From Macrostomum lignano (lineage: Eukaryota): a stretch of 64,000 nt of DNA. The notes beneath the pieces are model-generated. The model was given only the letters and a program-made list of their open reading frames with translations. It did not search any database and had not been told where the DNA came from. Within the stretch, counting starts at the first letter, position 1, and each line of letters starts with the position of its first letter. The translations under genes were made by a program, and so were the position numbers. The stretch is taken from the NCBI GenBank assembly GCA_002269645.1, contig NIVC01000738.1, positions 310,001-374,000 of the forward strand. Reading direction: 5' to 3'. This document shows, piece after piece, positions 3,601-23,319 of the stretch.

Positions 3601-6600
3601 TGCATATCAAGCCAGCCAATGAGGGCCGGAGTCAATGTGCATATCAAGCCATGTAGCCAATTGAGGGCCGGAGTCAATGTGCATATCAAGCCAGCCAATG
3701 AGGGTCGGAGTCAATGTGCATATCAAGCCAGCCAATGAGGGCCGGAGTCAATGTGCATATCAAGCCAGCCAATGAGGGCCGGAGTCAATGTGCATATCAA
3801 GCCATGTAGCCAATTGAGGGCCGGAGTCAATGTGCATATCAAGCCATGTAGCCAATTGAGGGCCGGAGTCAATGTGCATATCAAGCCAGCCAATGAGGGC
3901 CGGAGTCAATGTGCATATCAAGCCAGCCAATGAGGGCCGGAGTCAATGTGCATATCAAGCCAGCCAATGAGGGCCGGAGTCAATGTTCATACTGAAGCAG
4001 TTAATTTGAACCCGAGTCAATTTACACAATTTAGCCAATCCGTTGCAATATGAAATTAGTGTTACACTTGAACGGGAATTCATTCATTCTCTTTCATTCA
4101 TCCAGGCTTTATCGAGGTAGGCGGATACGAAGAAATGGTCCGCTTGTTTCCCATCCGCCTGGCCAAGGACATCCTCACTTCGAACACCTCCTGCGGTGTC
4201 ATACCAGAAACCTCCATGAACTTGATGAAGCCGATCGACGATGACCAGCTTCCGTGGCTCGGCGCCACTATGGGACTCGCCGTGAACGCCATCTGGTACT
4301 GGTGCAGCGACCAGGTACGGCTGGGACACCGGTTGCTAAAGCCTTTGAAAAGTTTAACTGGATCCCATAAGTCAACTAGCAAAAGCGCCAGGGATAAAGG
4401 GGAAAATGGGGATTTCACATCACACAACGTGAAAACAAACTGTGACCTCCCGCTGCTCGCGAGACTGCTGTGGCAATATTGAGAGTCGTCACAGCCAGCC
4501 CCTCCTACACCATGCACAGGTGATTGTCCAGCGCGCTCTTGCGGCGAAGAACTTCACCTACGCGAAGGCGGGCACTCTGCTGGCGGGCTACCTGAAGCTG
4601 CTGCCCATGTGGCTGCTGGTGTTCCCCGGCATGATCTCCCGAGTCCTGTTTCCCGGTGAGTGAGCTGCTAGATTGTGAGCTGCTGGGTGTGAGCTGCTAG
4701 ATTGTGAGCTGCTAGATTGTGAGCTGCTAGATTGTGAGCTGCTAGATTGTGAGCTGCTAGATTGTGAGCTGCCGGATTGTAAGCTGCTAGATTGTGAGCT
4801 GCTGGATTGTCAGCTCCTAGATTGTGAGCTGCTAGATTGTGAGCTGCTAGATTGTGAGCTGCTGGATTGTAAGCTGCTGGGTTGTGAGCTGCTGGGTTGT
4901 GAGCTGCCGGATTGTGAACTGCTGGATTGTGAGCTGCTGGGTGTGAGCTCCCTTCCAGCTGCTGGCTAATGTTCTCGCGTCACGCTCCTCAGACACCGTC
5001 GGCTGCTCGGACCCTGCGATCTGCAAGGACATGTGCGACAAGGAGAGCGGCTGCACCGACCTGGCCTACCCGACGCTCGTGCTGCAACTCCTCGGCGACG
5101 GACCGCGGGGCCTCATGATGGCCGTCATGATCTCATCTCTGGTGTCCTCGCTGACCTCGATCTTCAACTCGGCCTCGACCATTTTCACCATCGACATCTG
5201 GAAGCGAATCCGCAGCCACGCGCCGGATATGGAACTCATGATCGTTGGGCGGTGAGTGCCAGTGGTTTGAGTGCCAGCTTTCAGGTTGCTTGCGAAATCG
5301 AATCTCGCAGCAAACTTATAATGACTGGTATTGCAGAGTCTTTGTCCTGGGCATGGTCGCTGTCGGAGTCGCCTGGATACCAATTGTGAAGTCAGGTGCG
5401 GAGCTTTTCCACTACATCCAGGCTGTGACCAGCTACCTGTCGCCGCCGGTCTGCGCAGTGTACATGGCCGCCGTCCTGTGGAAACGCTGCAACGAGAAGG
5501 TGCGGCTTGCTCTGTTTTTAAACGGAGAAGAGAAGGAAAAGAGAAATGGAGATGAGGGGAAGAGGAGGAGAATAAGAGGTGGGGGAGGGGAATAAGTGGA
5601 AGAGGAGAATAAGAAGTGGAGGGGAGGAGGGGAAGAAGACGTGGGGGTGTAATGAGAGCTGGAGGAGGGGAATAAGAGGTGGAGGAGGGGAATTAAGAGG
5701 TGGGGGAGGGGAATTAAGAGGTGGGGGAGGGGAATAAGAAGTGGAGGAGGAGAATAAGAAGTGGAGGGGAGGAGGGGAATAAGAGGTGGGGGAGCGGAAT
5801 GAGAGGTGGAGGAGGGGAATAAGAAGTGGAGGGGAGGAGGGGAATAAGAGGTGGGGGAGGGGAATAAAAGGTGGGGGAGGGGAATAAGAGGTGGGGGAGG
5901 GGAATAAGAGGTGGGGGAGGGGAATAAGAGGTGGGGGAGGGGAATAAGAGGTGGGGAGGGGAATAAGAGGTGGGGGAGGGGAATAAGAGGTGGGGGAGGG
6001 GAATAAGAGGTGGGGGAGGGGAATAAGAGGTGGGGGAGGGGAATAAGAGGTGGAGGGGAGGAGGGGAATAAGAGGTGGGGGAGGGGAATAAGAGGTGGGG
6101 GAGGAATAAGAGGTGGGGGAGGGGAATAAGAGGTGGGGGAGGGGAATAAGAGGTGGGGGAGGGGAATAAGAGGTGGGGGAGGGGAATAAGAGGTGGGGGA
6201 GGGGAATAAGAGGTGGGGGAGGGGAATAAGAGGTGGGGGAGGGGAATAAGAGGTGGGGGAGGGGAATGAGACCTGTAACTTTGAGGAAATAGTTTTGTCC
6301 TCATGAAACACTCAAATTCCGAGTTTCAATGTAACGGACGGCTCTTGAGTTTCATTGTCGCACGTTCGCGGCTGCTCCCCACCACAGGGCGCATTCTGGG
6401 GCCTGATCGTTGGCTTCGTGGTCGGCATGATCCGCTTCATCGTGGAATACTCCTATGAAAAATTCTCCTGCCACGAGGCCTACAAGAGCACGCTGCCTGA
6501 CGTGATCGGCAAGATGCACTATCTGCACTTCGGCATTCTGCTGTTCGTCATCAGCCTGATTGTCATCGTTGTGGTGTCGCTGCTCACCGAGCCGATCCCG

Positions 6601-8863
6601 GATGTTCACGTGAGTAGCACAGGCAGGTGCCAGTGGGAATGGCAGGTGGCAAGAAGCAATGTCAGTGAGGACACTTCAATATCATGGAAAATTTTCCGAA
6701 TAAAGTACATGTCGATAAGTATTGTACTATTAAAGACTAGATCGAGCGAAACTGAAAATCAGGTTTTGCCGCCGGCAACCTTCAATACTCAGTGAGCAAA
6801 ACGGGAGCCCGTGCCAGCGGCCCAGGCTCGATTCCAAGTGCAGTCACATTAATTTGGGGCTGAATTGGAATCTCGGATTGGCTCTGATCTGGCAATTAAC
6901 GCCATTGAGGGCCAAACCCCAAGGCACGGTGAAGTGTACATGCCTTGAACGATAAATGAAGTTAGGGCCGCTGTACACTCCTGTGTGAGTGTGTGCCTGT
7001 GCGTATGACTGTATACGTATCCGCGCGCTTGTGTGCCTGCTCAGGAGAGTCGGCGGAATGGGCACTAATGTCTCTCGCCGGTTGTGGGACAATGTCGGGG
7101 TGCACACAGCCCCTGCCTCTAATAAGAAGAATCCGTGAACAAAACTTCAGAAAAACTTTGAGCTCTAAGAAGGTCTGTAGTTTCACTCGAACTATCTTTG
7201 ATGCCCGCGCACTGCAGCTGCACCGCCTGACCTTCTGGGACCGCTACTCGGAACTGGAGCGGGTGGACATGCCCGAGGATGAGGTCAGGTGCGCCTGCCG
7301 CGGCGAGGCGGAGGAGGCCGACACCGACAATGCGCCCGACAACAACGGCAAGGACAATCTGGGCTTCTATGGCTCCAAGAAGTCGCTGCAGAAGGAGGAG
7401 CAGCCGGGCACGGCTCGCGACGTTGAATTTGCTGCGACTGGTGAGGATGGCCGTGAGGGATTTCTCAACTCTTCGGGAAATTTGCTTTGAACTCAATTGG
7501 AAGCCTGCTATCGATTGCTTACGTAACATTATTAATATTTGTGCAGCCGTATAATCTCCTGGTCATTGTGCTCCCGAATGTGCAGTCTGGCTTTGATTGC
7601 GTGTTGGAAGAATTTTACAGGATGTAGAGGCGTGAATATTGACACCAGGGGTTGGCAACCTCTTTACTTCCGGACAGGTGGAGAATCTTCGCATGACTGC
7701 GTGCAACAGGAGGGGGAGAGGAGATGGAATAGAAAAGAGAAGAGAGGAGAGTAGATAAAGGATAGGAGAGAAGAAAGAGAAAAAAGGAAAGAGAGGAGAG
7801 GAGAAGAGAGGAGAGGAGAGGAGAGGAGAGGAGAGGAGAGGAGAGGAGAGGAGAGGAGAGGAGAGGAGAGGAGAGGAGAGGAGAGGAGAGGAGAGGAGAG
7901 GAGAGGAGAGAGAAAAGAAAATGAGAAAGAAGATAGAAAAAAACTTGAAAGATGGAAGAGAAGAAAGGAAGTAATATGAGAGAGAAGAGAGGAAAGAACA
8001 TGGGAGAGAAGAGAGAATAGGGGAGAGAGGAGAGGAGAGAGGAGAGTAGAAAGGAAAGGAGAGAGGAGGGGAGAGAGGAGGGGAGAGAGGAGGGGAGAGA
8101 GGAAAGGAGAGAGGAGGGGAGAGAGGAGGGGAGAGAGGAAAGGAGAGAGAAGGGGAGAGAGGAGAGGAGAGAGGAGAGAGAGGAGAGAACGTGGGAGAGA
8201 AGAGAGAATAGAGAGAGACACCAAACTTGAGCGGCTGGGTGGCTAATGTGGGGGTCAAGCAATCCGAGGCCCTGCATACGAGCGTAGAGAGGCTTGGCGG
8301 GCAGGAGTTTGCCGATCCCTGATTTACAGCTAAATTCGAATCGTTCCCTTGTTTGCCGGTTTCTTTAAAAGAGCATGCAATATGTCACAGTTTTCAACCA
8401 GATTTCGCTCAATTACGAGCTACATCTCTGAGCGCCTACATGCGACAGGCCAGGATCGGTTTCTGAGTCTTCACTCTTCGTCATCTGGACTTTCCCGAGC
8501 ACACTTTCGAAGTTCGATAAAAACTATTAGTGCATACACTAAGATTTTTGCACACACTAAGAGATCCGCTTTAAATTCTTCGCTTGCTACTCTTCAGTAG
8601 GCCCTCTCGAACCCTCACTGGCCGCCACCCGAACCCCCGCACCCGCAGCGCCCCCGCCCTGGTACGTGCGCGCCGGCAAGTGGGTCTGCGGCATCGAGGA
8701 CGAAGTGGAGGACCCCGCCGCTCACATCGATCCCGAAGAGCTCAAGCGCTTGGAGAAGGAGGCTGTATCGCTGGACGAGGACCCTAAGATGAAGCGAGTT
8801 GTCGACATCAACGCCTTCATTATCGTCACCGTCTGCCTGTTCGTCTGGGGCTTCTACGCCTAG
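695..8863 (+). CDS. SLC5/SGLT-family sodium:solute (glucose/inositol) symporter, 5' partial, 10 exons
   Basis: Exons 695-859, 1168-1272, 2383-2569, 4106-4314, 4520-4655, 4993-5251, 5337-5499, 6388-6609, 7218-7440 and 8598/8601-8863. All introns are GT-AG and phases are consistent. SSF motifs: [79 protein letters not shown]. Confidence 0.93.
1876..2245. repeat. 93-bp tandem repeat, 4 copies, intronic
   Basis: Unit ttgggccttaggtttgcagctcg...ggggctgcta repeats at a 93-nt period. Confidence 0.92.
3035..3990. repeat. 37/41-bp minisatellite with a CCAAT in every unit
   Basis: Unit agccagccaatgagggccggagtcaatgtgcatatca; a variant carries tgtagccaattgag. Confidence 0.95.
4665..4945. repeat. 15-bp minisatellite (gctagattgtgagct)
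   Basis: Visible tandem repeat filling the intron 4656-4992. Confidence 0.9.
5560..6268. repeat. 20-bp G-rich purine minisatellite (gaggtgggggaggggaataa)
   Basis: Visible tandem repeat. Confidence 0.92.
7720..8220. repeat. (GAGAG)n-type polypurine low-complexity tract
   Basis: Visible. Confidence 0.9.
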
Positions 8864-9575
8864 CGGGTCCCAACCGCTAAAACGCACTGCACAAGCGCCG
8901 TGTTTCCAACAGTAGCTATCAAAAAACTGATTATTGGCTCTCAGACTGCATATCGAAGCTAAAATGAGATGTATATACAATACTAATGTATTATGCTCAC
9001 TCAGCAACACAAAAAGCTCTCTAGTTGCTGGCCTAGCAGAGCTGGGCCTTCGTTGGAATTAAAACTTAGCAATTAAATCTTCGGATTTTCGGAAGTAAAG
9101 CTCAGATAACTGAAATGTTGCTGCAGAATGCGGCAGAGCTGTGCTCAGAATGTCACAAGTTTGAAAATTTGCTTATTGCTGAAAAGTTGAGATAACTGTT
9201 GTATTGCAAATTTTTCAACTTTAACAAATTCAAGCAGAACCGGTCCACATTGCTACTGAGAGTAGTGCTGTTGCATCACTGAAAATTTCCCCTGGAAGTG
9301 CCGAAAATAAAAAAAACAGCAAAATAAATCACAAACAAATTTCTCGCCGAGTCTTATCCCATGAACTTTTAAATAGGCAGGAATCGCTAACACAATTTTT
9401 ATTCGCATCATTCATTTAAAATTACTTATAACCGAAACTCAGATGAGTCACAATGCACCTGCACACCTCAACCACCAATCTCAGTTTGGAATGCAGCAAA
9501 TCGGGTGAAATGTCTGCAACCCATGTGCTTTACTGCAGTTTTTATTACGTGACAAGTGACTCTCACTCGTCAACT

Positions 9576-11743
9576 TTATTCGCTGCCACCCGCCATGGCC
9601 AGCAGCGAAGGCAGAGTGTCGGGATCCAGGTTGCCTCCGGTGAGGACAACTCCAATGTGGCGCAGATGATCGGGCAGGCAGTCCGCTGCGGCGAACACTG
9701 CGGCGTGCAGAGCCGCGGCGCTGGCTGGCTCGATGACCTGACGGCACGGAGCGTTTGGGGCGACAGTCAGGGAGATTTTTTAGCCTTTCTTCATCCCCTC
9801 TCCTACAGGTGACTTGCGCTGCCCTTCTGTCCTGCTCTACCTTAAACAGACTCCTGACGCACCTGCTTCAGGTAGCGGAAGGCCAGGCGACAGCCCAGCG
9901 CCATTTCGGCGTCCGAGACAGACAGCACGTCGGGCTGGACGAGGTCGCAAAGCACCGGGAAGGTGAGCTCCCCCGCCGACTGCAGCCGCAGGCCATCTGC
10001 GATGGTCGTCAAGAAGGCGTCGGGGTTTGGCCATAGAGGTTGGCGGGCCGCCAGGCATTTGGCGAGGCCTTTACCGGCTGGCTCCACGCAGTGAACGCGG
10101 AGCTCCGGCTTCAGGTGGCGGCAGGCCACCGCGATGCCGCTGCTGAGGCCGCCGCCGCTGATGGGCACCTGCAGGTCAGGAAGGTCGGTGGCGGTATGTA
10201 GCCATTAGGCGCACTCAAAATATTTTGTTTATGGTTTACATCCTCTGAGAATGTTCCGGTCCGATAATTTGGCCTTGGACACTTTGTTCTGTTTCGGTTT
10301 CATGCTCAAAATCTGAAGTTTCCAACGTTTCCTGCGAGCTAGACATTGAATTTCGACGATAATAGTAGAAAAACAAAAAACATGCTTGTGTGCACCGATG
10401 GTTGTACATGCGGTAGCTATTAAACGTTTAAAGAAAATTTATGTAACTTTATGAGAATTGTATGTAAATTTTTGAGTCGCATATGCTGCGTATGTAAGTT
10501 GTACTCGTATGATATCTTAAATTCGTACGAATTGTTTCATTTCTCCAGAACAGTTCCCAGTTAAGATGAAACTACAATACACGAGTTCGTTACACGTAGG
10601 TACACGAAAATACGCCACAAAACTTGACTCATGCTAGGCATCTTGCTAGACTTTCGGTTGTACGAGTAGCATGAGGGCTTGGAGACAAAGTGATTCGGGT
10701 TGCTTGCACAAACGCGAAACTTCACACCCGCTAAATGTAACTTTAGTTGGTGATTTAGCTATTACGAAGTTTCGCTGTTGCAAAAGTAGATAACATTTAG
10801 AGGTTATGAAATTTCGCGTTTATGAAATCCCCCGCGGATGAGAGGGGAAGTATCTGGCCAGTTTGATGTGGCCACGAACACGGATTGCAACCCGGGCTAT
10901 CATGGAGCAAGAGTCAGAAGCGTCAATTGCTGAGCTGCGCTGGCTCGAGCACGAGAATTCGCCTGGCAACTCTCGCCTGAAAACCATGAGAAAATCGGGG
11001 CCGCCGTTGCTTTGATTTGTGGGAGTGCCTGAAGCCCCACTGCAGGTACAAGCTAACAAACAGAGCACCAGGGTCTTACCAAGACAGCGTCCAGCTCGGG
11101 CACCTGCTCCAGCAGCTCCAGGGCCACGGTGCCCTGCCCAGCCATCACGCGGTAGTCGTCAAACGGCGGCACCACAACAAGGCCGCGCTCCTCGGCCAGC
11201 CGAGCGCAAGCCTGGCGCCGGGCGCGCATATTCGGCTCGCAGAGGACCATCTCTGCTCCGTAGGCTCGGATGGCTGCCGTCTTGGCTGGCGAGGTGCCCT
11301 CGGGCACCACCACGCAGCAGGTGAGGCCGCATTCTCGGGCTGCCCAGGCCAGGGCTTAGTTAGGGATAAAGTTGAAATTTGTACGAGGAAAAACTTCCGC
11401 TTTGTAAAAGCCATTGGCAAATGAGCCGCACCTGCCCGTGGTTGCCGCTGCTGTGCGTCGCCACTCCAGCAGGCGTGGCGCGGCCGTTCTCCCGCGCCTC
11501 TTCCAGCAGGCACAGGACGGCGTTCAGCGCTCCGCGCGCCTTGAAGCTGCCAGTCCGCTGCAGGTGTTCGCACTTGAAATACAGCTGGCGCGATGACATG
11601 GCGTCCAGAATTCTGCTGGTCATCACCGGCGTGCGGTGCAGCCGGTCGCGCAGACGCTGCGCTGCAGAGGCGATTTTATCGAATGATATTTGCTTAGAAT
11701 GGTGGGGCGCTGCGGCCGCGGCTGTTGGAGTCGAGACCGACAT
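9576..11743 (-). CDS. SRR: Serine racemase / serine-threonine dehydratase (PLP fold II), 4 exons
   Basis: Exons 11743-11432, 11354-11080, 10168-9863 and 9737-9576. Motifs: FKCEHLQRTGSFKARGA (PLP lysine), HSSGNHGQ, PFDD..VMAGQGT, VPISGGGL, IADGL, GVVLTGGNLD. The exon 1/2 junction is one nt short as assembled. AATAAA overlaps the TAA stop. Confidence 0.9.
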
Positions 11744-12282
11744 CTTTGCATTGGTTTTATTGAATTCAGTTATTCAATCAATCCTGAGGTTCGTGAAAAC
11801 TGCTAAAAATTGGCTTTCGAAATCTCGTATGCTTTGTTGTGGCCCTCGCCATGCAGTATTCAACCCTAATCTCTCCCTTGCGAATGCTTATCTGACATTT
11901 TAGCAAGACACAGATGAACAGTTCCAAGCATTTACTTAGCGAATAGTCGAAGTGTACATATACAATCGTGCAGTCTATGCATGCACTGTACATGTGCATG
12001 CAATACCAGTGCACACTCCCTCTAACGAATAGGTTAAATACATGTCAGACAAGCTGTACGCTGTTTCCTCTGGCTACGTGACTGGCGCTTTTTTCTCTCA
12101 TTCTATTGTTCGGAAGACGATATTTTGACAGCTGTGACCTTTCACCCTTATAAGTATATTCGTTTTAATCCTAGTCACCTCATAGATAATCCCATCTCAC
12201 TCTCCTCTTCATCAAAAATCTAATGTACGAGTATATTTTCAGGTTAATTTTGAACCTGGCATCGCTGAAACTCATAAATCAT

Positions 12283-12800
12283 AGTAGTAGGAAAGTGGTA
12301 CCCTCTACCGCCATCGCACCGGATTGGCCGGGGCACCCGGCCAATGAGGGGAGAGGGCGCCCCGAAGACGCCCACCCCGACGCCAAACCCACCCCGACCC
12401 CCAAACCCACCCCGACCCCAAACCCACCACCGCCACGCACCCAATCCCGACCCCAAACCCACGCACCCACCCCCGACCCCAAACCAGGCCCCCTCCTGTC
12501 CTACACCCCTCCTGTCCTGCACCCCGTGCATCCCATACCAAGACCCCCTCCTGTCCTGCACCCCGTGCATCCCATACCAAGACCCCCTCCTGTCCTGCAC
12601 CCCGTGCATCCCATACCAAGACCCCCTCCTGTCCTGCACCCCGTGCATCCCATACCAAGACCCCCTCCTGTCCTGCACCCCATGCATCCCATACCAAGAC
12701 CCCCTCCTGTCCTACACCCCTCCTGTCCTGCACCCCGTGCATCCCATACCAAGACCCCCTCCTGTCCTGCACCCCATGCATCCCATACCAAGGCCCCCTC
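12283..12800 (+). repeat. Left terminal inverted repeat, including an expanded 39-bp tandem array at ~12490-12790
   Basis: agtagtaggaaagtggtaccctctaccgccatcgcaccggattggcc... matches the reverse complement of the region ending at 23319. The 39-bp unit is ccccctcctgtcctgcaccccgtgcatcccataccaaga. Confidence 0.92.
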
Positions 12801-13362
12801 CTATCCTACGCCTTGCCCCATCCCATGTAGCAAGGTCCTTCTATCCTGTACCCTAACCAAAACCAATTCCCCCCTCCTAATTCCTAAACCCAAGTCTTAT
12901 TACCTGTCTCACTTACCGCCTTTAAAGCTAGCCAAGGCAAAACCCTCATTCCATGCTTTGGTTGTACTGTATCTTGCTGTGGCGGGTACAGCGTGAGGTC
13001 GTTAGACCTAGAACGCTACTTCTTGGCGGCCAGAGGGCCGCAAGAAGGTCCCGCCACCTCCTGTTACGTTGATGGCTGAGACTTTGTTAAGGCCCGAGTT
13101 CCTGCGAAAGGGCTGCTGTGTGGGGGTTGGATTTGGGGTTCGGATTAGTTATTGCTATGGAACAGGAGCTGGTTTCTAAATGGCTGAGTGGTCCCCGGAA
13201 GGGCTCCTGATTTGCCGAGAGTTCCTGCGAGAGGGCTGTTGTGTGGGGTTGGATTCGGGGTTCGGATTGGTTATTGCTATGGAGCGGGAGCTGGTGTTAC
13301 TTACCAACTCTCGTCGTATATAATCTCGCACACAGCCGGAAGGAAAGCTCACAGTGAACAAA

Positions 13363-13800
13363 ATGAACTTCAAGACATTATCGAACAGATTTCGAATCGG
13401 CGTCAGGTCGCACTCGAAGTGCATCAGCATCAGAAAGTGGTACAAATTTGATGAAGAGTATCGACCAGGTCTGCCTGGCATGGAGCTCACCGTCCACCAG
13501 TTTTGCCACTTGGGCAGCCTGAAGGAACGACTGGAAGAGTTTGCAAGAAAGTGTATCGATGCGCAATGCCTTCTGGGTGGCAACAGGCAAGTGGTTGTGC
13601 AAAATGGCGTAATCACACTCTGGCGCCTTCCAACTGTACTCGGACCGCCGGTGCACCTAAGGCACGCCTTACCGCTTCCTACTACACTTTGGCGCGAAGT
13701 CTGGGCTCAAAAGCAATGGGTCCTAGACAAAATGACAAGCGAGAGCCTCCGGTCGAGCCACCGATCGGCGATCCATGGGATACCACCCTACGGAATCTGA
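13363..13800 (+). CDS. PC4/Sub1-like ssDNA-binding / coactivator-domain protein (Polinton-encoded)
   Basis: RIGVRSHSKCISIRKWYKFDEEYRPGLPGMELTVHQFCHL matches the PC4 pattern (V.V..F.G...IDIR.YY....PG.KGISL..EQW..L). A second, weaker repeat begins LGGNRQVVV. TATATAA lies at 13317-13323. Confidence 0.7.
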   Translation: MNFKTLSNRFRIGVRSHSKCISIRKWYKFDEEYRPGLPGMELTVHQFCHLGSLKERLEEFARKCIDAQCLLGGNRQVVVQNGVITLWRLPTVLGPPVHLRHALPLPTTLWREVWAQKQWVLDKMTSESLRSSHRSAIHGIPPYGI

Positions 13801-14048
13801 AGTGTTCAGCATGGGCAGCAAGGCTTACGCTCGACCAACTGATGCAAGTACCTGACAGGCAGTCGGCAGATTGGGACGACCACTGGGGGGCCTTCCAAGC
13901 AGTTCAGGCTGAATTTAGAAAGAGATTTACATTCGAAACTCTGGAAGAGCCACCAACAGCTGAGAAGAACCAACAGCCTTCATTCCACCAGCCACCAATG
14001 AAGCGACGCGCAATGCATGAAGCGACAACTGGTCATTTCGTCAATTAA
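13716..14048 (+). CDS. Hypothetical ~110-aa Polinton protein
   Basis: ATG-initiated ORF (MGPRQNDK...) overlapping the PC4-like ORF, with an AATAAA near 14212. No recognisable motif. Confidence 0.4.
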   Translation: MGPRQNDKREPPVEPPIGDPWDTTLRNLKCSAWAARLTLDQLMQVPDRQSADWDDHWGAFQAVQAEFRKRFTFETLEEPPTAEKNQQPSFHQPPMKRRAMHEATTGHFVN

Positions 14049-14483
14049 CTTTTTTTTAATATAGTTTTGAACCATAGTACTGATCATGCACTGTTGTATA
14101 TATTGCTTTGTCAATACTGGCCATAATATTGCCCCATCATGCTTTGATTCCGGGCGATAATACTGTTTTGTAAATACAGGCGACGGGCCTTAATACTGCC
14201 CTTCCATTCTTAATAAACTTTTTTGTGCTAATACGAGCTTTTAACATGTAATTTTATGCTTTGCAATCCATGGACCTGCCAATAAAATAAACAAAAAAAA
14301 CATTTCATTTTCGTAAGCATTGTTGTACAAACACTATTGTCGCATTCGCGTTTATTTTTTCTTATCTTTTGTACACAAAAAAAATACAGAAGTAAAGTTA
14401 CAGCAAAAATATTATTATTATTATTATTATTATTACTCGGTGCATAGGCAGATCTCACTACTACTGTTATGCCGTAGAGGAGC

Positions 14484-15083
14484 TCAGTCAGAGTCCAGCA
14501 AAGTAGGTTCGGATGCTTGATCTGGTAGCAAAATGCGGGAGAGGGCATCAGCTGCAGTCTGAGCCTCAACCACGCTGCGAGCACCAGCTATTATACAACG
14601 ATACGAATGAAACAAAATCAACTTTACAGAGGCAGTAAACTCGAGCACAAGTCCGTTAAACATTTCCGGCTCATAGGTGGCCCGATGCGGCCATTTAGAC
14701 TTGACTTCCCCCAACCGGAGTGGATGCCGACCCGCGGGAAAGGCCGTCACAGAGGTAATAGTCTTGATGCGAATCTGGGGCAGACTGGTCAATCGCAAGA
14801 AGTCCGCACACAGCTTCACAATCTTCTCCGTCTCTGCGAGAGCTTCCTCCATGCTTTTGGCTCCACAGACAGACACTTGTCCGGTCGGATACACCAGCGC
14901 GGTTACTCGATGCTGCCCGCTCTTCATCACCACTGCCAGTGTTCGAGGATGAACCAGGCGATGGCGGATTGTGTGATACTGAGGCAGATGAAGAGTCAGG
15001 AAATTCACTAGTTGAGGCAGACCCACCCGGGTCGCCAGGTCGGCTCCTGTCACGATGTTTGTCACGCGAATTGTTGCGACCAT
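14484..15083 (-). CDS. TATA-binding protein (TBP)-like protein, 199 aa, intact, inside the Polinton
   Basis: Two TBP repeats: RVTNIVTGADL...TALVYPTGQVSVCGAKSMEEA and IRIKTITS...ATYEPEMFNGLV...KLILFHSYRCIIAGARSVVEA. Compare canonical QNIV...TALIFASGKMVVTGAKS and YEPELFPGL...LIFVSGKIVLTGAK. Confidence 0.88.
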   Translation of the reverse strand: MVATIRVTNIVTGADLATRVGLPQLVNFLTLHLPQYHTIRHRLVHPRTLAVVMKSGQHRVTALVYPTGQVSVCGAKSMEEALAETEKIVKLCADFLRLTSLPQIRIKTITSVTAFPAGRHPLRLGEVKSKWPHRATYEPEMFNGLVLEFTASVKLILFHSYRCIIAGARSVVEAQTAADALSRILLPDQASEPTLLDSD

Positions 15084-15576
15084 CTTTAGACAATCGAGAG
15101 AAACGCCAGTGCCTGCTGCAGATCGCTACTTTTATAGACCCGTAGCCGCGAGGCCGCAGCCAATCAGCGTACAGCGCCACTTTGGCCAGGGCGCAGGGTA
15201 GCACGTACTTTGAGGCACTCGGAAAGGCTAGGTGTGCGAGGTCGTAGACAGGCTGCAGCAGCAGACGCGACAGGAACTGGCACTTGACATCCCCCTTGCT
15301 AAATATCGGGCCTTGCAAGTGAGAGATATCGCTCCAGAGACAAGAGTAGGGTCGGAACCCACTCCTGTCCCAGTCTAGACCGTGCCGCTTATTGGTGAGC
15401 CAGTAGCAGGTTCGTCGCTGTCCTCTATCAAAGAGCTCAAAGCTGTGCGGCGGCTGGTAGCAATAGTAATGAGCCGTCGTTTGACCGCATGCAAACTCAA
15501 CCCATGCAATTTCCTTAATCACAAAGTCCTCTGTTTTGTAGAGGTGCGGAAATCCTTCAAAATCAATGACAATCAT
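14695..15576 (-). CDS. DnaQ/DEDD-like nuclease-fold protein of Polintons; the real protein is probably the N-terminal ~140-150 aa
   Basis: MIVIDFEGF...FVIKEIA...H...PP...WLTNKRHGLDWD...FSKG..KC.FL. The C-terminal ~130 codons overlap the TBP-like gene out of frame and look like read-through. Confidence 0.6.
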   Translation of the reverse strand: MIVIDFEGFPHLYKTEDFVIKEIAWVEFACGQTTAHYYCYQPPHSFELFDRGQRRTCYWLTNKRHGLDWDRSGFRPYSCLWSDISHLQGPIFSKGDVKCQFLSRLLLQPVYDLAHLAFPSASKYVLPCALAKVALYADWLRPRGYGSIKVAICSRHWRFSRLSKDGRNNSRDKHRDRSRPGDPGGSASTSEFPDSSSASVSHNPPSPGSSSNTGSGDEERAASSNRAGVSDRTSVCLWSQKHGGSSRRDGEDCEAVCGLLAIDQSAPDSHQDYYLCDGLSRGSASTPVGGSQV

Positions 15577-16487
15577 CTTGGCCACTTGATCCACTTGCCG
15601 TATCCTTTCTGAGACTGAGTCTTCTTATAGCCTTGCAGTCGAGGTTTTTTAGGACTGGACTTTTCTTCCCGAGGCTTTTCCAGCAATTTTGTAGTGTTCA
15701 GACCAACTGCAGACAGAGGCACGTGGTTTTCTTGAAGACACGTAACAAACTCATTAATCCCATTCGGTGGCTGAAGGTACTTAGAGTACGTATCTTTAAC
15801 TATGAAATGCAGCAGGTCCACGATATTTGAGTTGTACAACGGTTTACCATTGACAGAAACTTCATACGTATCATCTATGCTAATCGACTTGCACTTTACG
15901 GTTATGAAGCTAATCAATGCCTGCAGACGATGATGCCATTTCTGATTCACCGTCAGATATAAAACCTCCTTCCACTGCGGTTCTTTGTGAATTACTGGAG
16001 GCTGTTCTTGGGTCGCACTTGCCTGCAGCTGCTGCACGCAACGCTCGTCCCTAATCTTGCGCAACTGTTTTTCCGCCTCTAGCTCGGGTTCACAGACTGT
16101 CTCCATGCCCCTCTGATTCACAAGTGCCTCATACTGCAACCGGGTACCAGTATCATTTCCTTGTACATGTCTTTTTATACAGGTGAGAATCAGAGGAAGA
16201 CAACGAAGGATATGCGGGTGTGAGAGATTACGCCGAGCCTCTTTCACACTTTTGCTTTGTGCAACAAGCCGGAGAGTATTTCGATATCGCCTGAGTCTCC
16301 GCTTCAAGCTATCTTCACAGCCAACTTTTCCTGCTAGTAAGTTGATAATACACTCGACCAAAAAGCAAATGGTGCTTTTATTTGCATAGGTAAGTATGCA
16401 GCGACGCAAGGATATAGTGCCCTCACAAAAGACAGTTATTAGTGCAATGTGTTTATCATGTTTAACTCAGTGCAGAGACTGAGCCAT
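15573..16487 (-). pseudogene. Two conserved Polinton ORFs, apparently fused by a 1-nt lesion, with an in-frame TGA
   Basis: ORF A reads MAQSLH*VKH...FLVECIINLLAGKVG...KRRLRRYRNTLRLVA, with TGA at 16469-16467. ORF B starts MYKEMILVP in another frame near 16150 and continues ...NGKPLYNSNIVDLLHF...PPNGINEFVTCLQENHVPLSAVG...KWIKW. Confidence 0.6.
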
Positions 16488-16489
16488 TC

Positions 16490-17147
16490 TTATAGATAAA
16501 CTCGCTGCGGGGCCTCATCGGGGAGAAAATTGGCTCTCAGGCGCAGTTCATGGCGTGAAGCGGGTGAAAATCAAGCAGCAGATAGCGCTGATCTCCATCT
16601 CGCACCAATCGATCCATCAGTTCTACTAGCAGAGTGCGCCGTTTGGGAAAGCATTGCTGACTTAAAGCTTGGACCGCAGAGGCGTCTCTGGGGTTGTTGA
16701 ACAACACCATGTAGGTGCAATTTATGCTAATTGTGCGCCACTCTCTGCCTTTGAAAAATAGATTTTGCGTGATGAGAATGACAAAGCAGGGCTTGTGGTG
16801 GGCCTCACGGGTGAACAGATGTCGTAGCTCTCGACTTGCAGCTGCTTCATCCAGTAAATCGTCAATCACAATCAGGTCATGGGGCTGCAGATCCAAATTC
16901 GATAATCCTTCACATACTTGCACTCCTAGCCGCCGCAGAGTCGCGTGGAGTTCCGGCTGCGGGCATCCGTGATACCAAATCATCCGCTTGGGAGGTTGGT
17001 CGAACAAAGCAGTCGTTGGGACAGCAACCGCAAACAGAATGTTGATTTTCCCGCTCGAGAAGGGCCCGAAACCATCATGCAGCCTCCCATCCGCAGTCTG
17101 GAATCAAACACCTTGCAACTGATTTTTGAGTCTGAGTATGATTGCAT
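16490..17147 (-). pseudogene. A32/FtsK-HerA-like DNA-packaging ATPase, frameshifted as assembled
   Basis: Walker A GPSRAGKST, then a frameshift near 17010, Walker B LIVIDDL, HH and TQN motifs and LFNNPRD. A second shift near 16550 precedes ELRLRANFLP. Confidence 0.9.
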
Positions 17148-17577
17148 CGTTTTGAGCCACAGCTGCCGGGTGCAAAACCTTGATGAACAAGGCATTATAT
17201 GACATTCTCTTATGCAGTCGATGGATCAAGTAAAAAATGCAATACCAGCCGCAAAGAGTTGACGAACTGGGCTGAACAGGGACCGTATTCCATTGTAGCA
17301 CCATCCGCGTCGGTTTAGTTTTCTTTAACCAGCTCTTCATATTTTTACTCAAGCCTCCCAAAGAGTTGAAAATTTCACAATGCACTTTACTGGTTACTAC
17401 TCCAGCAATCCAGTGACCGCACTCATCATTCCATGGCTCATACAAAATGAAGCAGCAGGGTCGGCAGGTTGAATCGAAAAATGGTGTCACTGTTCCAACT
17501 GTAAAATTTCCGCAATAGGCATCCCGCACAGATGTGGGGCAGCGAGAAATGAACGCTTCCAACTCTTCGGAATTCAT
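17104..17577 (-). CDS. Adenain-like (clan CE) cysteine protease, 157 aa
   Basis: GHW (His), FNSLG (normally FDSxG), VQ (oxyanion Gln) and CGWYC (Cys). Confidence 0.88.
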   Translation of the reverse strand: MNSEELEAFISRCPTSVRDAYCGNFTVGTVTPFFDSTCRPCCFILYEPWNDECGHWIAGVVTSKVHCEIFNSLGGLSKNMKSWLKKTKPTRMVLQWNTVPVQPSSSTLCGWYCIFYLIHRLHKRMSYNALFIKVLHPAAVAQNDAIILRLKNQLQGV

Positions 17578-18844
17578 GCTCTGCGATAATCCAGCAGCAC
17601 ATCCCTCTCTTTAGTGATTTCCATGCATGAATCATACACGCACAAGCAGATGAGTGTGACTGGCTGTGCGAGAGCGTTGGAAAAGCGAATATCCAGTCGT
17701 AGTTGACCCTGCCTATGACCAAACCAGCTGCCTACTTCATCGCCACTTGGACTAAGGTCAAACGCAAGCAGATAGGCACTATTTCGAAATTCATCAAAGC
17801 TTATGCAATATTTTCCACTGAGACTGCGGGCAAACTGCAAAAATTCGGATGAGGGCTGCTGCTGTGGTTCTATGGGCTGCCCAGTAATTGGCTCTCCATT
17901 GACAAACAGGCTTAAACTATTCAACCAAATGCTTGGAACCAAAACGGGTTGTGGTGCAGAGATCCATTGAAAGCAGTCTGGCTGACCATTCCAAGGAGCA
18001 CAAATTTTGGCAGCTGACCATGCGTGATTGAATCGAGACTCTTGTTTCTTGTCCCAACAGAAAATGTGAATGTCTGAAGCTCTCTTCTATCAAAGTGGTA
18101 GAGAGCATTACGCTGTGAGAGCCCCTGTTCATGTGCGAGAGCCACTGTTGGGTTTACTCGGAGACGCCTCAAAAGCAGAATAGCATTGTCGACTTCAACA
18201 CGGTATTGAACTCCATTATTGGGTACCATCAACGAAAAAGCGCTGCAGTGCCGGGTCAATTTGACCTGCAGGCTGATTTGGTTTAGCAGATACTGCCGGA
18301 TTGAGAAAATGTCTGAAAACAACGGGCCGGCATATTGCACAACAGCAGAAGCCTCATGCAATCTCGCACGATTTGTGAATCCATGATTTTGCTCCCCAAT
18401 GGTGTCACTCTCTCCAGCGGTGTCTGGATAATAACCTGCGGCCGCCAGTTCTTGAAGCTGGTTGGCATTGCTGCTGGTCAGCACTTGAAGCATTGCTCGA
18501 TATGGGTAGAGCTGGTCCCCACCACTCACAACCCGCTGGTTGAGTTTTACAGTGACATCACGAAACAGGCTGGCAAGCGGGAGATTCGATAGTCCGACAT
18601 GGGCATCATCTTCATTAGTCAGCTCTGCATTGTTTATCACACGAGTTATCCGGCAAGTGACTTGCAGCACTGTGGCGTGCAGATCGGTGTAGTCCTCAGA
18701 GGAGGCGTGGCAGTCGAATTCAATCGGTGCATCAGGAGTCGTGAGACTGCCGATGGGATGAAAGTCCGTGAAGTGAGACCTATCCACTCCAATTTCATGC
18801 GTCATTGGCTCAAACAGATTGAGCCGTGGATTTGTCCGATACAT
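17574..18844 (-). CDS. Polinton major capsid protein (double jelly-roll, PY/hexon-like), one frameshift near 17925
   Basis: LNLF...PIEF....DYTDLHATVLQV...SLFRDVTVKLN...YPYRAML...NPFWFQAFG, then in the adjacent frame LNSLSLFVNG...AFDLSP...G.LRLDIRFSNAL...VTLI....YDS.MEITKERDVLLDY. Confidence 0.88.
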
Positions 18845-19107
18845 TATGAGAGTGAATCGAGCACTCGGTTGACTGTTTTTAACGGTATCTTGCGCTTTTT
18901 TGTGGGCACTGGCTTGCTCTTCTTTGGTTTGATTTTTGGCGTTTTCTTATGTTTTTTCTGCGATGGAGGTGGTATGCGGGAAAGGAGAACTGCATTTTCA
19001 TGAGTCTCAGGGGGCAGTCGAGATAGCAGCGATGTGGGATATCCGTGCCCATGAGGAAGTTTGAAGCAACTGCCTCGATAAAACTCGGTCACTTGTCGAA
19101 TGTCCAT
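18844..19107 (-). CDS. Small basic virion-core-like protein, 87 aa
   Basis: FYRG...HGHG N-terminus and a Lys/Pro-rich tail. It lies between the minor and major capsid genes, and its stop overlaps the MCP ATG (TAATG). Confidence 0.6.
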   Translation of the reverse strand: MDIRQVTEFYRGSCFKLPHGHGYPTSLLSRLPPETHENAVLLSRIPPPSQKKHKKTPKIKPKKSKPVPTKKRKIPLKTVNRVLDSLS

Positions 19108-19871
19108 GACTCACGCAGCTCAAAAGTCAAGACTGTGGGTCCAAAGAGTAATCGGATAGATTCGATACAGTTGATCGGTCGTAGCCGTATTTGCATGTGT
19201 GTTAAGCGGTGGTTTGCTGCTATTGGGAAGAATAGCTTATTCTTATAGATGAGTTCCGACCGGTGATCCTGCAAAAGACCACCAATATTCAAAGTCTGCA
19301 GTGCTGGAGTAAACTGATTTCCAATACAGCGCGGGCTAATCTGATCGCACTCAACAAGCAGCAAATCCGTATTCCAGGCCGGGTTCATGCCAGGTCGTTC
19401 AAAGCATCCTGCCTGCTCGCTATAGGTTGTCTGCGCAGCACCAAAGATTTTCCCCATCTGGCTGTTTTCTGGAAACATAAATCTCTCACAGATCCCAGCC
19501 ATTTGATAGTATACATAATGGCTAACTGAATCAAGGGTAAATTTAATTAGATGCACATTTATAGGTGTTTCGCCAATTCCAGACTCATCAAAATCTTTTA
19601 CAATCAGTAAAGCATTTACTGCATCAATCAGCTCATTCAAGTCATTGTAGCGCCCAGCTGGAATTTCAGCACATTGCATTGAACCCTCAAGCTGATAATA
19701 TAGCGACAATGGATGAGGGATCGTGTAGATGCAGTTGATAAAACTGATTCCAAGCAGACCCAACTCATAGTCCAAAGCAGAATCCAGCAGCACAGGATGC
19801 AGCAGCTCAGCAGTAAAGTTGGCCGGGTCATCATCGGGGCCGGACATTACCTGAAATCTTTGCCTTTTCAT
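19089..19871 (-). CDS. Polinton minor capsid protein (penton/PX-like), 260 aa
   Basis: N-terminal ..NFTAEL..PVLLD...YELGL.GISF pattern and C-terminal FFPI...LTHMQIRL...T.LTFELR. Its position after the integrase fits this call. Confidence 0.75.
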   Translation of the reverse strand: MKRQRFQVMSGPDDDPANFTAELLHPVLLDSALDYELGLLGISFINCIYTIPHPLSLYYQLEGSMQCAEIPAGRYNDLNELIDAVNALLIVKDFDESGIGETPINVHLIKFTLDSVSHYVYYQMAGICERFMFPENSQMGKIFGAAQTTYSEQAGCFERPGMNPAWNTDLLLVECDQISPRCIGNQFTPALQTLNIGGLLQDHRSELIYKNKLFFPIAANHRLTHMQIRLRPINCIESIRLLFGPTVLTFELRESWTFDK

Positions 19872-21086
19872 ATTTTTCTTAAGTCTTTTTCGTCAATCCA
19901 ACTGGGTTTTTCTGAATCGCGCCACTGAACCAAATACCGAATCTTTCCACTCTTCAGCTTCTTAATGTTGAGAACCTTGTCGATGATCCACAGCTTCTTG
20001 TTTCCTGTCACTTGCTGCATTTCCGGCTCGTAAAACTTGCCTTCCAACTCTTCACCTCGGGCATCGATCAGAGTGTACATGTATGGATAATGCTTGGGGT
20101 GGAGGGACTTGACTTCAAATACTTCCTCACTCCATCCCCTTGTGTATCCCTTGGTGAATGGGTTGGCCAGATTGCGAAGAGAGATTCGCACCATCATTCC
20201 TGCCTTGAACTTTGGTCTGGAGACCTTTTCACGAGTCTCAGGAAGCTTCCCATCGTAAAGCCGGTGCCAAATTTCCATCTCGTTTGACTTGTCGACATCA
20301 ACTGGTCGGCTTTGAATACTCCGATGAATACTCTGGTTGTATGCCTTTGCTAAGGGTTGAAGCACATCGGTCCAGGTTAATGTTGACTTGTGACGGAAGT
20401 ACCGCCACATTCGGGATTTCAGTGTGCGGTTCCATCTCTCAATGACTGCGCATTTCTGGTCACTACTTGATGTGAATGCATGAATTTTGTGGTTTACGCA
20501 GAAGGCTCGGAACTGGGTGTTACAAAACTCTTTTCCACGGTCGGTCCGAACTGCTCGTGGGCATCGAGGGTGAGCTCGATTTAGGATCGCTTCGAATCCG
20601 GCTGCAACCTCCTCGGCTGTCTTGCGGCGCACCGGCTGAGCCCAGGCAAACTTGCTGAGCACATCAATGCAGCATAAAATATATCGTACGCCGCCATTGT
20701 ACTTGGCAAACGGTAGCATTTCAACCAGGTCCAGTTCCCACTGGTCATCCATGCCCCGCACCACAATCGGTGCTCGACGAAAGTTTTTGCGTTTATCTCT
20801 ATGCAGTGTGTAGACATCTTGGTCTTGGAGCCACGTTTTTACCTTTAATTGTAAAAACTGGAAATTGCTAGCTAGTGGATAAAACTAAAAACCTAAGCTG
20901 GAATTTTCTAAAAAATCATTGGTTTAGAAGTATATCGTATATACATACCTGCCCTACACTAAACTTGGGTCCGTGCTGTTTGTGCAACTCTCGTTTTAAT
21001 GCCTGATAGCCGCCATAGCTGCCCGGTCTACTGCAGTCAAAATAAATACCTGGCAGAAGGTTTGAAATTGCCTTTTTCTTTTTCAT
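19868..21086 (-). CDS. Retroviral-like (rve) DDE integrase with C-terminal chromodomain-like region, 2 exons, 370 aa
   Basis: Exon 1 is 21086-20949 (MKKKK...YFDCSRPGSYGG...Q), the intron is 20948-20843 (GTATGT...TTAAAG), and exon 2 is 20842-19868. Exon 2 motifs: VKTWLQDQDVYTLH, WELDLVEM, IDVLSKFAW, RTDRGKEF, IERWNRTLK, YNQSIHRSI, YLVQW. Confidence 0.93.
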
Positions 21087-21197
21087 TTTACCAAATTTCT
21101 AGTACCTATCATTTTCTTATGCCAAACACCTGCTTGAAAAAAAAAATAACTGCCCACCCCCACCAGTTTCTGCGGATTTAGCGTTTCTAGCCTCTGT

Positions 21198-21510
21198 TGT
21201 GCACGAAAAAGCATGCATGTTTGCACAAAATACATACATTTCAATGGGAATTTTTACCCGAATGTGTGCACAAAAAACCTCAACACTTTGCATACTTTTT
21301 AACACTGTGCACGAAAACTTGCATACTTGTGCACAAAATACATGTATTTCAATAGGGATTTGTACCCGAACCTGTGCATGAAAATTGACGCATTTTGTCG
21401 AAAAATTCACGCCGTATTGCATACTTTTAATCACTGGACGAAAACTTGCATACTTGTGGATAAAATACATACATTTCAATGGGGATTTTACCCCAGAGCT
21501 GTGCACAAAA
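21198..21510. repeat. Three degenerate ~108-129 bp direct repeats upstream of the integrase
   Basis: Copies start at 21198, 21306 and 21435 and share tg(t)gcacgaaaa...aaaatacat..atttcaat.gg.attt.tacc. Confidence 0.7.
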
Positions 21511-21702
21511 AATGACTAATTATAGCAAAAATATTTTTGTGAAAGAGCATTTTTCTCTATTTCTGCGTATTAAATATCATAGAGTAAAGCTTGTATTTAT
21601 TATTATTCAAAATATAGTATGTTCGTATTAAATTTACATGCATATAGTTGTTTTAAATCAGATATTTACAAAGAAAAAAAAATTTGTGGGAAAAAGAGCT
21701 TG

Positions 21703-22472
21703 CTAGTGTCCTGACAGATCGCACTGGCCGATATACACTAGCCTGTCGAGCACAACATTCGTCTTGAGAATGTGCACTAGAGCTAAATCCCCGTTGAAAA
21801 TCATCTGATCGCGGAACGTCGGCTTGGCCACAGGCTTCCCTGCTGAATAAACCAGCACGTAGTCCACTTGCTTGCGAACATACTCGATGGTCTACAGGGA
21901 GTTGTTTAGCAGCTTGTTGCAGTCTTTCTTGAACTCATTCTTGGCCTTTTGCACGACGCTCTATGCGGTAGATAATAACTTACGGTTGACACGTCAACAC
22001 ACCGAGTGGTCCTGATTACCCAGCCACTGCCATTGCGTAGTTACTTCTCTATCCGGTTGATGATAGTCTGCATGTCGTCAGAGAAGTAGTACTCCTCCTC
22101 ACTCTGGAGAAGAGAGTGGACCTTGGCAGCAAACCAGGCAGTGTTCTCGGCGGCGCAGCTACCATTAATGATGCGCTGCATCAGGACCCCGAGGCGCAGC
22201 TGAACTTTGATGGCGGTTCCTGGCTCACGTTGATGCTGGGTGATCAAGTCAATGAAAGCTTGACGAGTGTTTTCCAAAACATTCATCGGGTCGCCGCATG
22301 CACTGGCCCGGTAAAGTTGGGACCTGCCATTAAACGCCTCCTTGATCAGTTGAAAATGAATCGCTGGGGAGTCATCTGACTCAAACAGTGCTGGTATCGC
22401 AGGACATACCGCATAGTGCTCCTCAATGCCCCCGATTACTGATGACTCGCAAAAGTCGCAAGTTATTTGCAT
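21703..22472 (-). pseudogene. Protein-primed DNA polymerase B remnant (internally deleted, with nonsense codons)
   Basis: The N-terminal region (CDFC...H...C; KVQLRL...IEK*LRNGSGW) is joined within about 100 nt to motif B (KDCNKLLNNSL*TIEYVRKQVD...AKPTF...IF...KTNVVLDRLVYIGQCDLS). Exonuclease, motif A and motif C are absent. Confidence 0.85.
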
Positions 22473-22532
22473 TTTCGTTGTATTTTTAATTTAATCTAAA
22501 ATAAATAAAAAATCTATGGGGCCGAGGTGCTT

Positions 22533-22700
22533 TATTTATAAAGGGTACTGGAGCCCTTCTCCCGCAGGGTCCAAACCAAATCGTTCATCAGGGACCTCTC
22601 GACCAATAGAATCCATTCTCCACATTTTACTCGGAAATCACTTCAAATGCTTGCTCGACCAATAGAATCCCTTCCCCTCTCTACTCGGAAATTCCAAGCA
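22533..22700 (-). promoter_or_regulatory. Putative PolB promoter: TATAAATA plus duplicated CCAAT-containing 56-bp repeat
   Basis: TATAAATA lies at 22540-22533, about 60 nt before the ATG at 22472. ctcgaccaatagaatcc...tactcggaaat occurs at 22598 and 22654. Confidence 0.45.
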
Positions 22701-22953
22701 ATCAGACCCTCTACCCGTTAAGATCACATTGAAACTCTGTCTTGCGTATCACCACATGCGGTAGAGGATACTCAACTATGGACACTCATTCACATCTCAA
22801 AACTCACCCTTGAACACTCACTTAACTCACCCTTGGACACTCACCCAGACACTCAGCTGCCCAACCCCTCATCTGGCCTGCTCGACCGGCTTGCCCGACC
22901 GGCTTGCCCGACCCCAACCTGGGCTTGCCCGACCCCCTTCTCCGGCCTCCGGT

Positions 22954-23319
22954 ATGGGATGGTGTGCTGGACAGGAAGGGGCCTTGGTATGGGATGGGGT
23001 GCAGGACAGGAGGGGGCCCGGTTTGGGGTCGGAGGTAGGTGCGGCGGTGGTGGGTTTGGGGTCGGGTGGGCGTCTTTGGGGGCCCGGTTTGGGGTCGGGG
23101 TGGGTGCGTGGCGGTGGTGGGTTTGGCCGGGGTCGGGGTGGGTTTGGGGGTCGGGATTGGGTGCGTGGCGGTGGTGGGTTTGGGTCGGGGTGGGTTTGGG
23201 GGTCGGGGTGGGTTTGGCGTCGGGGTGGGCGTTTTTTGGGGGCGCCGTCTCTCCTCATTGGCCGGGTGCCCCGGCCAATCCGGTGCGATGGCGGTAGAGG
23301 GTACCACTTTCCTACTACT
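22954..23319 (-). repeat. Right terminal inverted repeat
   Basis: Reverse complement of the left end, differing in the copy number of internal subrepeats. Confidence 0.92.

Follow-up and report, generated by a model that had tools for sequence, protein, structure and literature searches.

The window analysed here, a stretch of 64,000 nucleotides of Macrostomum lignano (contig NIVC01000738.1), holds a Maverick/Polinton of 11,037 bp (12283-23319), and both a PC4-like gene and a TBP-like gene lie inside this one element. The reading to which the evidence inclines, if only slightly, is a two-step programme in which host TBP fires canonical TATA boxes and the viral TBP then switches on a late cassette of genes via a variant box. 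The canonical boxes, two of them built into terminal repeats, would be read first by host TBP and RNA polymerase II (Pol II), and the early products would be the polymerase, a tandem-PC4 single-stranded DNA (ssDNA)-binding protein for strand-displacement replication and, in the window's own family (family A), also the viral TBP. This TBP, altered at DNA-contact positions but with its acidic stirrup kept, would read YWTAAGA in preference to TATAAAAG, and the variant box would drive the integrase, capsid, packaging and core genes as a late cassette with host Pol II. The pairing of box and protein, the timing, the start sites and the role of the PC4-like protein as a single-strand-binding protein (SSB) are what we infer from the genes, folds, boxes, positions and distribution laid out below.

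Mavericks have genes for capsids but none for an RNA polymerase, which raises the question of how the particle genes are activated and whether a helper virus is needed. If true, a viral TBP with its own box would give a concrete answer to how these genes are switched on, and would account for capsid genes being able to remain silent in the germline. With several lineages in a single genome, there would be natural TBP-box pairs with changed specificity, informative on TATA recognition and possibly usable as orthogonal promoter parts.

All comparative elements were drawn from this single host genome. Family A comprises at least about 30 close loci (TBP identity 83-100%), some copies having a full polymerase and others the window's deletion, and family B at least about 100 matches at 35-40% TBP identity; proteins common to the two families are only about 27-57% identical. 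A further sample consisted of 14 capsid-bearing Mavericks of other lineages, with one stretch (C925) left out of the counts for want of classifiable matches.

Canonical and variant promoter boxes

A first-pass annotation of this DNA had described a PC4-like, a TBP-like and a 'PolB' open reading frame (ORF), each behind a TATA box, and the positions of these ORFs and of all three boxes were confirmed. They are listed here together with the variant boxes returned by a motif scan.

13317..13323, + strand: canonical TATATAA, inside the terminal inverted repeat (TIR), before the PC4-like gene (ATG 13363); kept in 19 of the 19 sisters in which the anchor was located
15130..15136, - strand: canonical TATAAAA(G) of the TBP gene, 53 nt before the ATG (15083); present in 23 of 24 close sisters
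22533..22540, - strand: canonical TATAAATA of the polymerase remnant (ATG 22472), homologous to the sequence preceding PC4 in subfamily copy C874
15623..15629, - strand: TATAAGA, 53 nt before the nuclease-like ORF
16488..16494, - strand: TATAAGA, 35 nt before PM
17208..17214, - strand: CATAAGA, 67 nt before the ATPase
18945..18951, - strand: CATAAGA, 107 nt before the major capsid gene
19241..19247, - strand: TATAAGA, 140 nt before PW (ATG 19107)
19877..19883, - strand: CTTAAGA, 12 nt before the first and 36 nt before the second minor capsid ATG
21115..21121, - strand: CATAAGA, 35 nt before the integrase

From its sequence and position, TATATAA at 13317 is probably an early promoter shared by the PC4-like and polymerase genes, and TATAAAA would be the early promoter of the TBP gene. 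The canonical motif TATAWAW is only modestly above chance in number (7 in the element versus 3.1 +/- 2.0 in 200 shuffles). The variant box YWTAAGA precedes seven of ten cassette genes, including the integrase, capsid and packaging genes and others. On the cassette strand of family A, all seven occurrences lie 10-160 nt before a start, with none on the opposite strand (p 2.6e-5); such start windows make up 22% of the cassette, and shuffles give 1.5 +/- 1.2 YWTAAGA. In two family-B elements, 8/9 and 7/7 occurrences precede starts, at places homologous to those in family A, and the strand bias over the three is 7:0, 9:0 and 7:1. A blind k-mer scan ranks TAAGA/TAAGAA top in each family, and the motif from either family holds in the other (p 5e-5 to 1e-3). 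Different boxes are found in other lineages, with TATAAAT in family F (6/6 and 6/6) and TATAAG in the PLA2X-bearing group (7/10, 5/7, 4/5, 5/6 and 2/4), and a PLV-like element without TBP (C506) has no enrichment of box motifs. A variant box at presumed late genes with a canonical box at presumed early ones is the pattern in A, B and the PLA2X group, and is not clean in B and F.

Among 57 boxes in ten elements, 32 lie 35-64 nt before the ATG (median 54, with one family-F start in the tally misplaced), which is the place expected of a TATA-type element. This clustering bears on a rival in which the TAAG core is a late initiator of the baculovirus/nudivirus type, the element is a satellite, and a helper virus provides the RNA polymerase that reads the core. 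The boxes of A, B and the PLA2X group do all contain WTAAG, in agreement with the late motif of baculoviruses, and two boxes stand only 12 and 21 nt before the ATG; against this, most distances cluster as above, the family F box is TATAAAT, and the elements encode their own TBP. We regard a helper polymerase as very improbable.

By context, 33 of the 57 boxes lie within the upstream reading frame and ten include its stop codon. These 43 overlaps are what would be expected if tight gene packing, through stop codons and lysine-rich protein ends, had produced the motif incidentally and the TBP gene were a passenger. However, the other 14 boxes are intergenic, including an integrase box that sits amid unrelated flanks in four family-B subfamilies and in family A, and neither the strand bias nor the purifying selection on TBP (below) fits a packing origin, to which we give hardly any credence.

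The TBP-like protein and the reading of the boxes

The TBP-like ORF converges with the PC4-like one on an AT-rich spacer with AATAAA signals, as first described:

13363..14048, + strand: PC4-like gene, a frameshifted copy (profile and sister comparison)
14049..14483: AT-rich spacer (32% GC) with poly(A) signals for both convergent units (AATAAA at 14212 and 14281 on the + strand and at 14351 on the - strand)
14484..15083, - strand: TBP-like gene, intact, 199 aa (Pfam and fold)

The ORF is matched by the Pfam TBP family (PF00352, 68.2 bits against a cut-off of 22.9) in two repeats, and its product is a bare two-repeat core with a predicted saddle fold (pLDDT 86.6), 26% identical to host TBP and 23% to host TRF2. 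The host TBP and TRF2-like genes are located separately from the element, each intronless (as the core, for TBP) on three contigs (L051-L053 and L057-L059). The closest folds in a viral structure library are those of giant-virus TBPs (11-18% identity). Relative to host TBP, N9, F142, F158 and the acidic E138-P-E140 are kept, while H45, Y65, S71, C73, T108, T110, N143 and K154 replace F, F, V, T, N, V, P and V, respectively. The canonical TATA-contact set (four intercalating Phe, two central Asn, and Thr, Val and Pro contacts) is therefore incomplete, as matched by eye at the positions that we take to contact DNA. The acidic stirrup, the predicted TFIIB site, is present as E138-P-E140 in families A and B, and an acidic pair is found also in the F and PLA2X groups. 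The ratio of nonsynonymous to synonymous rates (dN/dS) is 0.09-0.28 in five of six TBP pairs, suggesting purifying selection.

A TBP-like ORF occurs in 12 of the 14 further capsid-bearing Mavericks. In a quick tree, the Maverick TBPs all have long branches and are separate from host TBP and TRF2 (support 81-87), a single origin not being established. In the PLA2X-bearing lineages, the TBP frame opens behind a splice-acceptor-like sequence, and in four of five (L096:8231-8785, L107, L114, L117 and L109) it has no ATG of its own; the conserved pyrimidine-rich AG acceptor implies a spliced gene, whereas vertebrate Mavericks have been reported to be intronless. TBP relatives at 61-63% identity occur among metagenome proteins, and scans of viral contigs with TBP, capsid and integrase alignments gave no matches. 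A metagenome scan gave six distant TBPs, of which the one examined (L081) is AT-rich and giant-virus-like and not a Maverick.

A wider proposal, which we hold tentatively and think somewhat more apt to fail than to stand, is that invertebrate Mavericks have, as a near-core gene, a TBP that evolves fast, and that TBP and box co-evolve as a separate pair in each lineage (with the box YATAAGA, YTTAAGA, TATAAG or TATAAAT). The pair would act on host Pol II as a late switch that needs one protein only, in the manner of a sigma factor, the elements would be autonomous nuclear viruses without cross-activation among co-resident families, and the TBP would have been overlooked because it is divergent and often spliced.

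Several observations weigh against the two-step programme. The box motifs were picked after looking, the reciprocal test between families excepted, protein constraint or stop codons can explain some of the boxes, and the 2/4 score in C362, of the PLA2X group, falls short of significance (p 0.098). Nor is there a clean divide between early and late genes: in family B, YWTAAGA lies also 48-70 nt before PC4, and the TBP gene of that family itself stands behind a variant box; the TATAAAT of family F is a canonical TATA that host TBP could recognize. Neither the protease nor PZ has an upstream box in family A or B, two of the 14 capsid-bearing stretches (C1390 and C4948) yielded no TBP, and TBP of family A compared with that of subfamily A2 gives a dN/dS of 0.74. 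A single host for all elements also leaves room for a host factor reading the boxes.

The last point leads to a rival in which the boxes are ordinary, if weak, core promoters served by host TBP or some other factor of the host, and the viral TBP has another task, for instance as a decoy that TFIIB, NC2 or Mot1 would bind, or as a damper of host transcription. Such a reading would account for the canonical box of family F, for the several boxes that read TATATAAG, and for the loss from the viral TBP of an intercalating Phe and the second central Asn, all within one host common to every lineage. Yet the box sequence differs by lineage inside that host, CTTAAGA and CATAAGA deviate at two places from the canonical TATA consensus TATAWAWR, and canonical boxes serve the early genes of these elements; on balance we regard the host-factor reading as unlikely, though worth keeping in view beside the two-step programme. 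Four contig runs, whose RNA origin is only guessed, cover genes and spacers alike and carry no start-site information.

The PC4-like gene and the convergent pair

The PC4-like ORF of the first-pass annotation (13363-13800, 145 aa) matches PF02229 with an E-value of 2.6e-5, yet at 24.1 bits it falls just below the cut-off of 25; three of six relatives score above it (29.7-32.6 bits). The homology to PC4 is real, and the family protein has a PC4 fold, but the gene is not intact: near codon 125 the ORF departs from the frame of the family, and an overlapping frame that ends at 14048 holds the C-terminal part. The gene is uninterrupted in 11 of 30 family loci, typically with 231 aa. In its predicted fold, an uninterrupted sister shows a pair of PC4-type repeats (residues 1-126); the acidic tail behind them, modelled with low confidence, has a conserved D-x2-W motif. 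Its best fold match, over both repeats, is Pur-alpha (Z 10.7, rmsd 3.8, 117 aligned), followed by Whirly-type proteins, human PC4 (Z 6.4, rmsd 1.4, 63 aligned) and MoSub1; the phage T5 PC4 homologue, tied to replication by its PDB title, matches with Z 4.8. Profile searches find PC4 and MoSub1 by sequence, and the PC4 signature sits in the first repeat.

The TATATAA box of PC4 lies in the 1.07-kb terminal repeat, and full-length sisters have this box at their other end too, about 96 nt before the ATG of the polymerase gene. A terminal-repeat promoter shared with the polymerase fits an SSB for strand-displacement replication, and with the tandem ssDNA-binding-type fold it makes a replication SSB the most likely role of the protein as modelled. 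The gene would then supply a candidate for the single-strand-binding protein needed by protein-primed replication. An SSB role had been offered at first only as an alternative, and it fits better than the coactivator role put forward beside it. A family-F ORF that looked PC4-like by eye was counted as absent (probability 0.6%), and the SSB-like ORF of this family has no atlas match; in the PLA2X group, which lacks PC4, ORF G276 gives only weak leads (<0.9) to giant-virus clusters, one with 12% Pox_I3.

The coactivator role belonged to a proposal that the convergent PC4-like and TBP-like genes form one transcription module, with PC4 coactivating the viral TBP at the element's own TATA promoters. 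PC4 is a known Pol II coactivator, its viral relative carries the acidic tail with the conserved D-x2-W motif, and the two genes co-occur in two families: PC4 adjoins TBP in 29 of 29 family-A sisters (chosen by TBP), and it is present in 6 of 9 family-B stretches. In family B, however, the genes lie about 7.4 kb apart on one strand, with PC4 beside the terminal repeat, so that convergence is peculiar to family A. Elsewhere co-occurrence breaks down, as TBP is found without PC4 in the 12 TBP-bearing Mavericks of the further sample (no PC4 match below E 0.01 in any of the 14) and the capsidless element C491 has a tandem-PC4 gene (97% probability) without TBP; C566 and the PLV-like C506 have neither. 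Between C114 and C906, PC4 is saturated at synonymous sites (proportion of synonymous differences, pS, 0.79) where TBP is still close (0.25), which implies that the genes are not inherited as a unit, and the PC4 promoter is common with the polymerase. An adjacent convergent module is thus not kept across related elements, and from the separate distributions TBP tracks the capsid cassette and PC4 tracks replication. We consider joint action of the two proteins improbable. A complex prediction for the pair scored 0.01, gives no verdict and was not used as evidence.

What survives of the proposal under the two-step programme is an element-encoded TBP acting on the element's own promoters; PC4 and the three boxes then cited drop out, those boxes being more likely read by host TBP and the likely targets of the viral TBP being other, variant boxes. 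Autoregulation, also raised at first, is possible in family B, where TBP stands behind a variant box, and is not indicated in the window's family, where the box is canonical.

The element, its relatives and known systems

The window's element is a non-autonomous Maverick copy with most of its polymerase deleted. Its termini are AGTAGTAGG and CCTACTACT, with the AGTAGT/ACTACT ends and inverted repeats of Mavericks, and its remaining features are as follows.

12277..12282, + strand: target site duplication AATCAT, 6 bp (second copy 23320-23325)
12283..13355, + strand: left TIR of family A, about 1.07 kb, with the PC4 promoter at its inner end
14695..15576, - strand: ORF upstream of TBP, conserved in families A and B (by eye, a nuclease-like motif; no Pfam match)
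15573..16466, - strand: PM and PZ genes, merged in the window copy (named by position)
16537..17147, - strand: packaging ATPase, split in the window copy (comparison with relatives)
17104..17577, - strand: cysteine protease (weak match to Peptidase_C48, E 0.0097)
17574..18844, - strand: major capsid protein, split in the window copy (gene order and Maverick homologues; no Pfam match)
ATG 19107, - strand: ORF at the PW position (by position)
19089..19871, - strand: minor capsid protein (by position)
19868..21086, - strand: rve integrase with chromodomain, split in the window copy (PF00665, 52.3 bits)
22041..22472, - strand: remnant of a protein-primed polymerase, N-terminal 143 aa (sister comparison)

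The names PW, PM and PZ would follow from the gene order in PMC8097293. The ATPase expected of a Maverick is present, with a weak Pox_A32 match in family B, and the expected family B polymerase is found as full genes in sisters (PF03175, 80.5 bits in family B of elements). The 'PolB' gene of the first-pass annotation is thus polymerase-derived and not complete, as the 143-aa remnant shows 46% identity to residues 1-139 of the polymerase of a sister and lacks the catalytic part. Polymerase-deleted copies (the window's at 22041-22472, and L064, L065, L070, L071, L078 and L050) keep an open N-terminal frame of 143-187 aa behind a TATA box, possibly the terminal-protein domain of a non-autonomous subfamily. 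The left arm (12283..13355) matches the right ends of the full-length sisters C114, C110 and C291. Beyond the tips it is only about 80% alike to the right arm (22525-23319), which resembles subfamily copy C874, so that the window's subfamily looks chimeric. A 1196-aa database protein (P0003), in which ORF pieces of the element are spliced onto an ABC transporter, is a gene-prediction artefact that could mislead searches.

By eye, the flanking host genes are serine racemase/threonine dehydratase-like (exons at 9842-11773, - strand), with the element inserted about 500 nt upstream, and sodium/solute symporter-like (exons at 6349-8863, + strand). Further along the window, 32675-33632, 34160-35381, 46835-48238 and 54518-55747 hold minisatellite arrays (21, 22 and 15 nt) and a MITE-like inverted repeat of 328 nt (99%) around 574 nt.

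Other elements of the host genome differ in content. Family F (C181, C384, C594 and C251; L093-L094, L097-L098 and L103-L106) consists of TIR-bounded Mavericks of 9.5-10.5 kb with integrase, capsid cassette and TBP-like gene; no polymerase match lies inside the element, and the family is possibly a satellite lineage without a polymerase. A Fic-domain gene (PF02661, 52.9 bits) is present in C181. The PLA2X-bearing Mavericks carry a dUTPase, and in C1680 a deoxynucleoside kinase gene follows TBP. C491 (L123-L124, 1032-11130) and C566 (L125-L126) are elements of about 10 kb that have terminal repeats of 0.9 kb and a different type of family B polymerase, without integrase or capsid match; C491 has, beside its tandem-PC4 gene, a 376-aa ORF without assignment. 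C506 (L119-L120, about 3600-19500) is AT-rich and unlike the Mavericks, with a 493-aa capsid candidate, an A32 ATPase, a fibre-like gene, a polymerase and an integrase.

Giant viruses pair their TBP with a polymerase of their own, a point of difference from the Maverick TBP. The latter shares with giant-virus TBPs and cellular TBP/TRF2 the two-repeat saddle, the first Asn, the C-terminal Phe pair and the acidic stirrup, and differs from the cellular proteins in its low identity and changed DNA-contact positions. The PC4-like protein shares its fold, and the sequence signature in the first repeat, with PC4/Sub1, Pur-alpha, Whirly proteins and the phage T5 homologue; compared with PC4/Sub1, it has two PC4-type repeats per chain, as in Pur-alpha, followed by the acidic tail, and lacks the N-terminal regulatory tail.

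The closest functional precedent comes from herpesviruses of the beta and gamma groups, in which KSHV (Kaposi's sarcoma-associated herpesvirus) ORF24 and EBV (Epstein-Barr virus) BcRF1 are viral TBP mimics and late genes have a TATT box (PMC7498053). As far as the available text of that source goes, these viruses resemble the Mavericks in having a TBP-like protein but no RNA polymerase of their own, and in setting a variant TATA at late genes against a canonical one at early genes, although in the Mavericks the early and late classes are presumed; by analogy the Maverick TBP may work like the herpesviral mimics. These are, however, large proteins with an extra domain binding the Pol II C-terminal domain, acting with five further viral proteins, whereas the Maverick TBP is a bare core of 190-200 aa (199 aa in the window), recognizable by sequence, with no such partners identified and with boxes that vary by lineage; it does not belong to a late initiation complex of the herpesvirus type.

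The element itself is of the group-I type defined by Barreat and Katzourakis 2021 (PMC8097293). The accessible portion of that paper agrees with it in the (AGT)2//(ACT)2 ends, the 6-bp target site duplication, the integrase, polymerase, ATPase, protease and two capsid genes, and the PW, PM and PZ positions; the window's element differs in having its cassette genes all on one strand, in its extra PC4-like, TBP-like and nuclease-like genes, and in missing most of the polymerase. The words 'TBP', 'TATA' and 'PC4' do not occur in this portion, and the accessible parts of PMC10748475 and 10.64898/2026.06.19.733378 do not mention TBP or PC4. TBP is given for MELD viruses, with no function stated in the text available, by Starrett et al. 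2021 (PMC8502044), whose adintovirus maps (Suppl. Fig. S2) include MOSUB, SSDBP and MAEL among their labels; the preprint 10.1101/697771 uses the same TBP/MOSUB/SSDBP labelling. MoSub1 is a PC4 protein by its PDB names, and the MOSUB label presumably stands for it, in which case these maps share with the present elements a PC4-type label as well as TBP; in the text seen, they are labels without function, promoter box or distribution. In the open literature, to which the search was confined, no account of Maverick TBP function, a TBP-box system or a late box was found. Thus, the element class and the accessory labels TBP and PC4-type on adintovirus/MELD maps were known already, and what is new is the near-ubiquity of TBP across the Maverick lineages of this host genome, the lineage-specific boxes before particle genes, and the separation of PC4, with replication, from TBP, with the late cassette.

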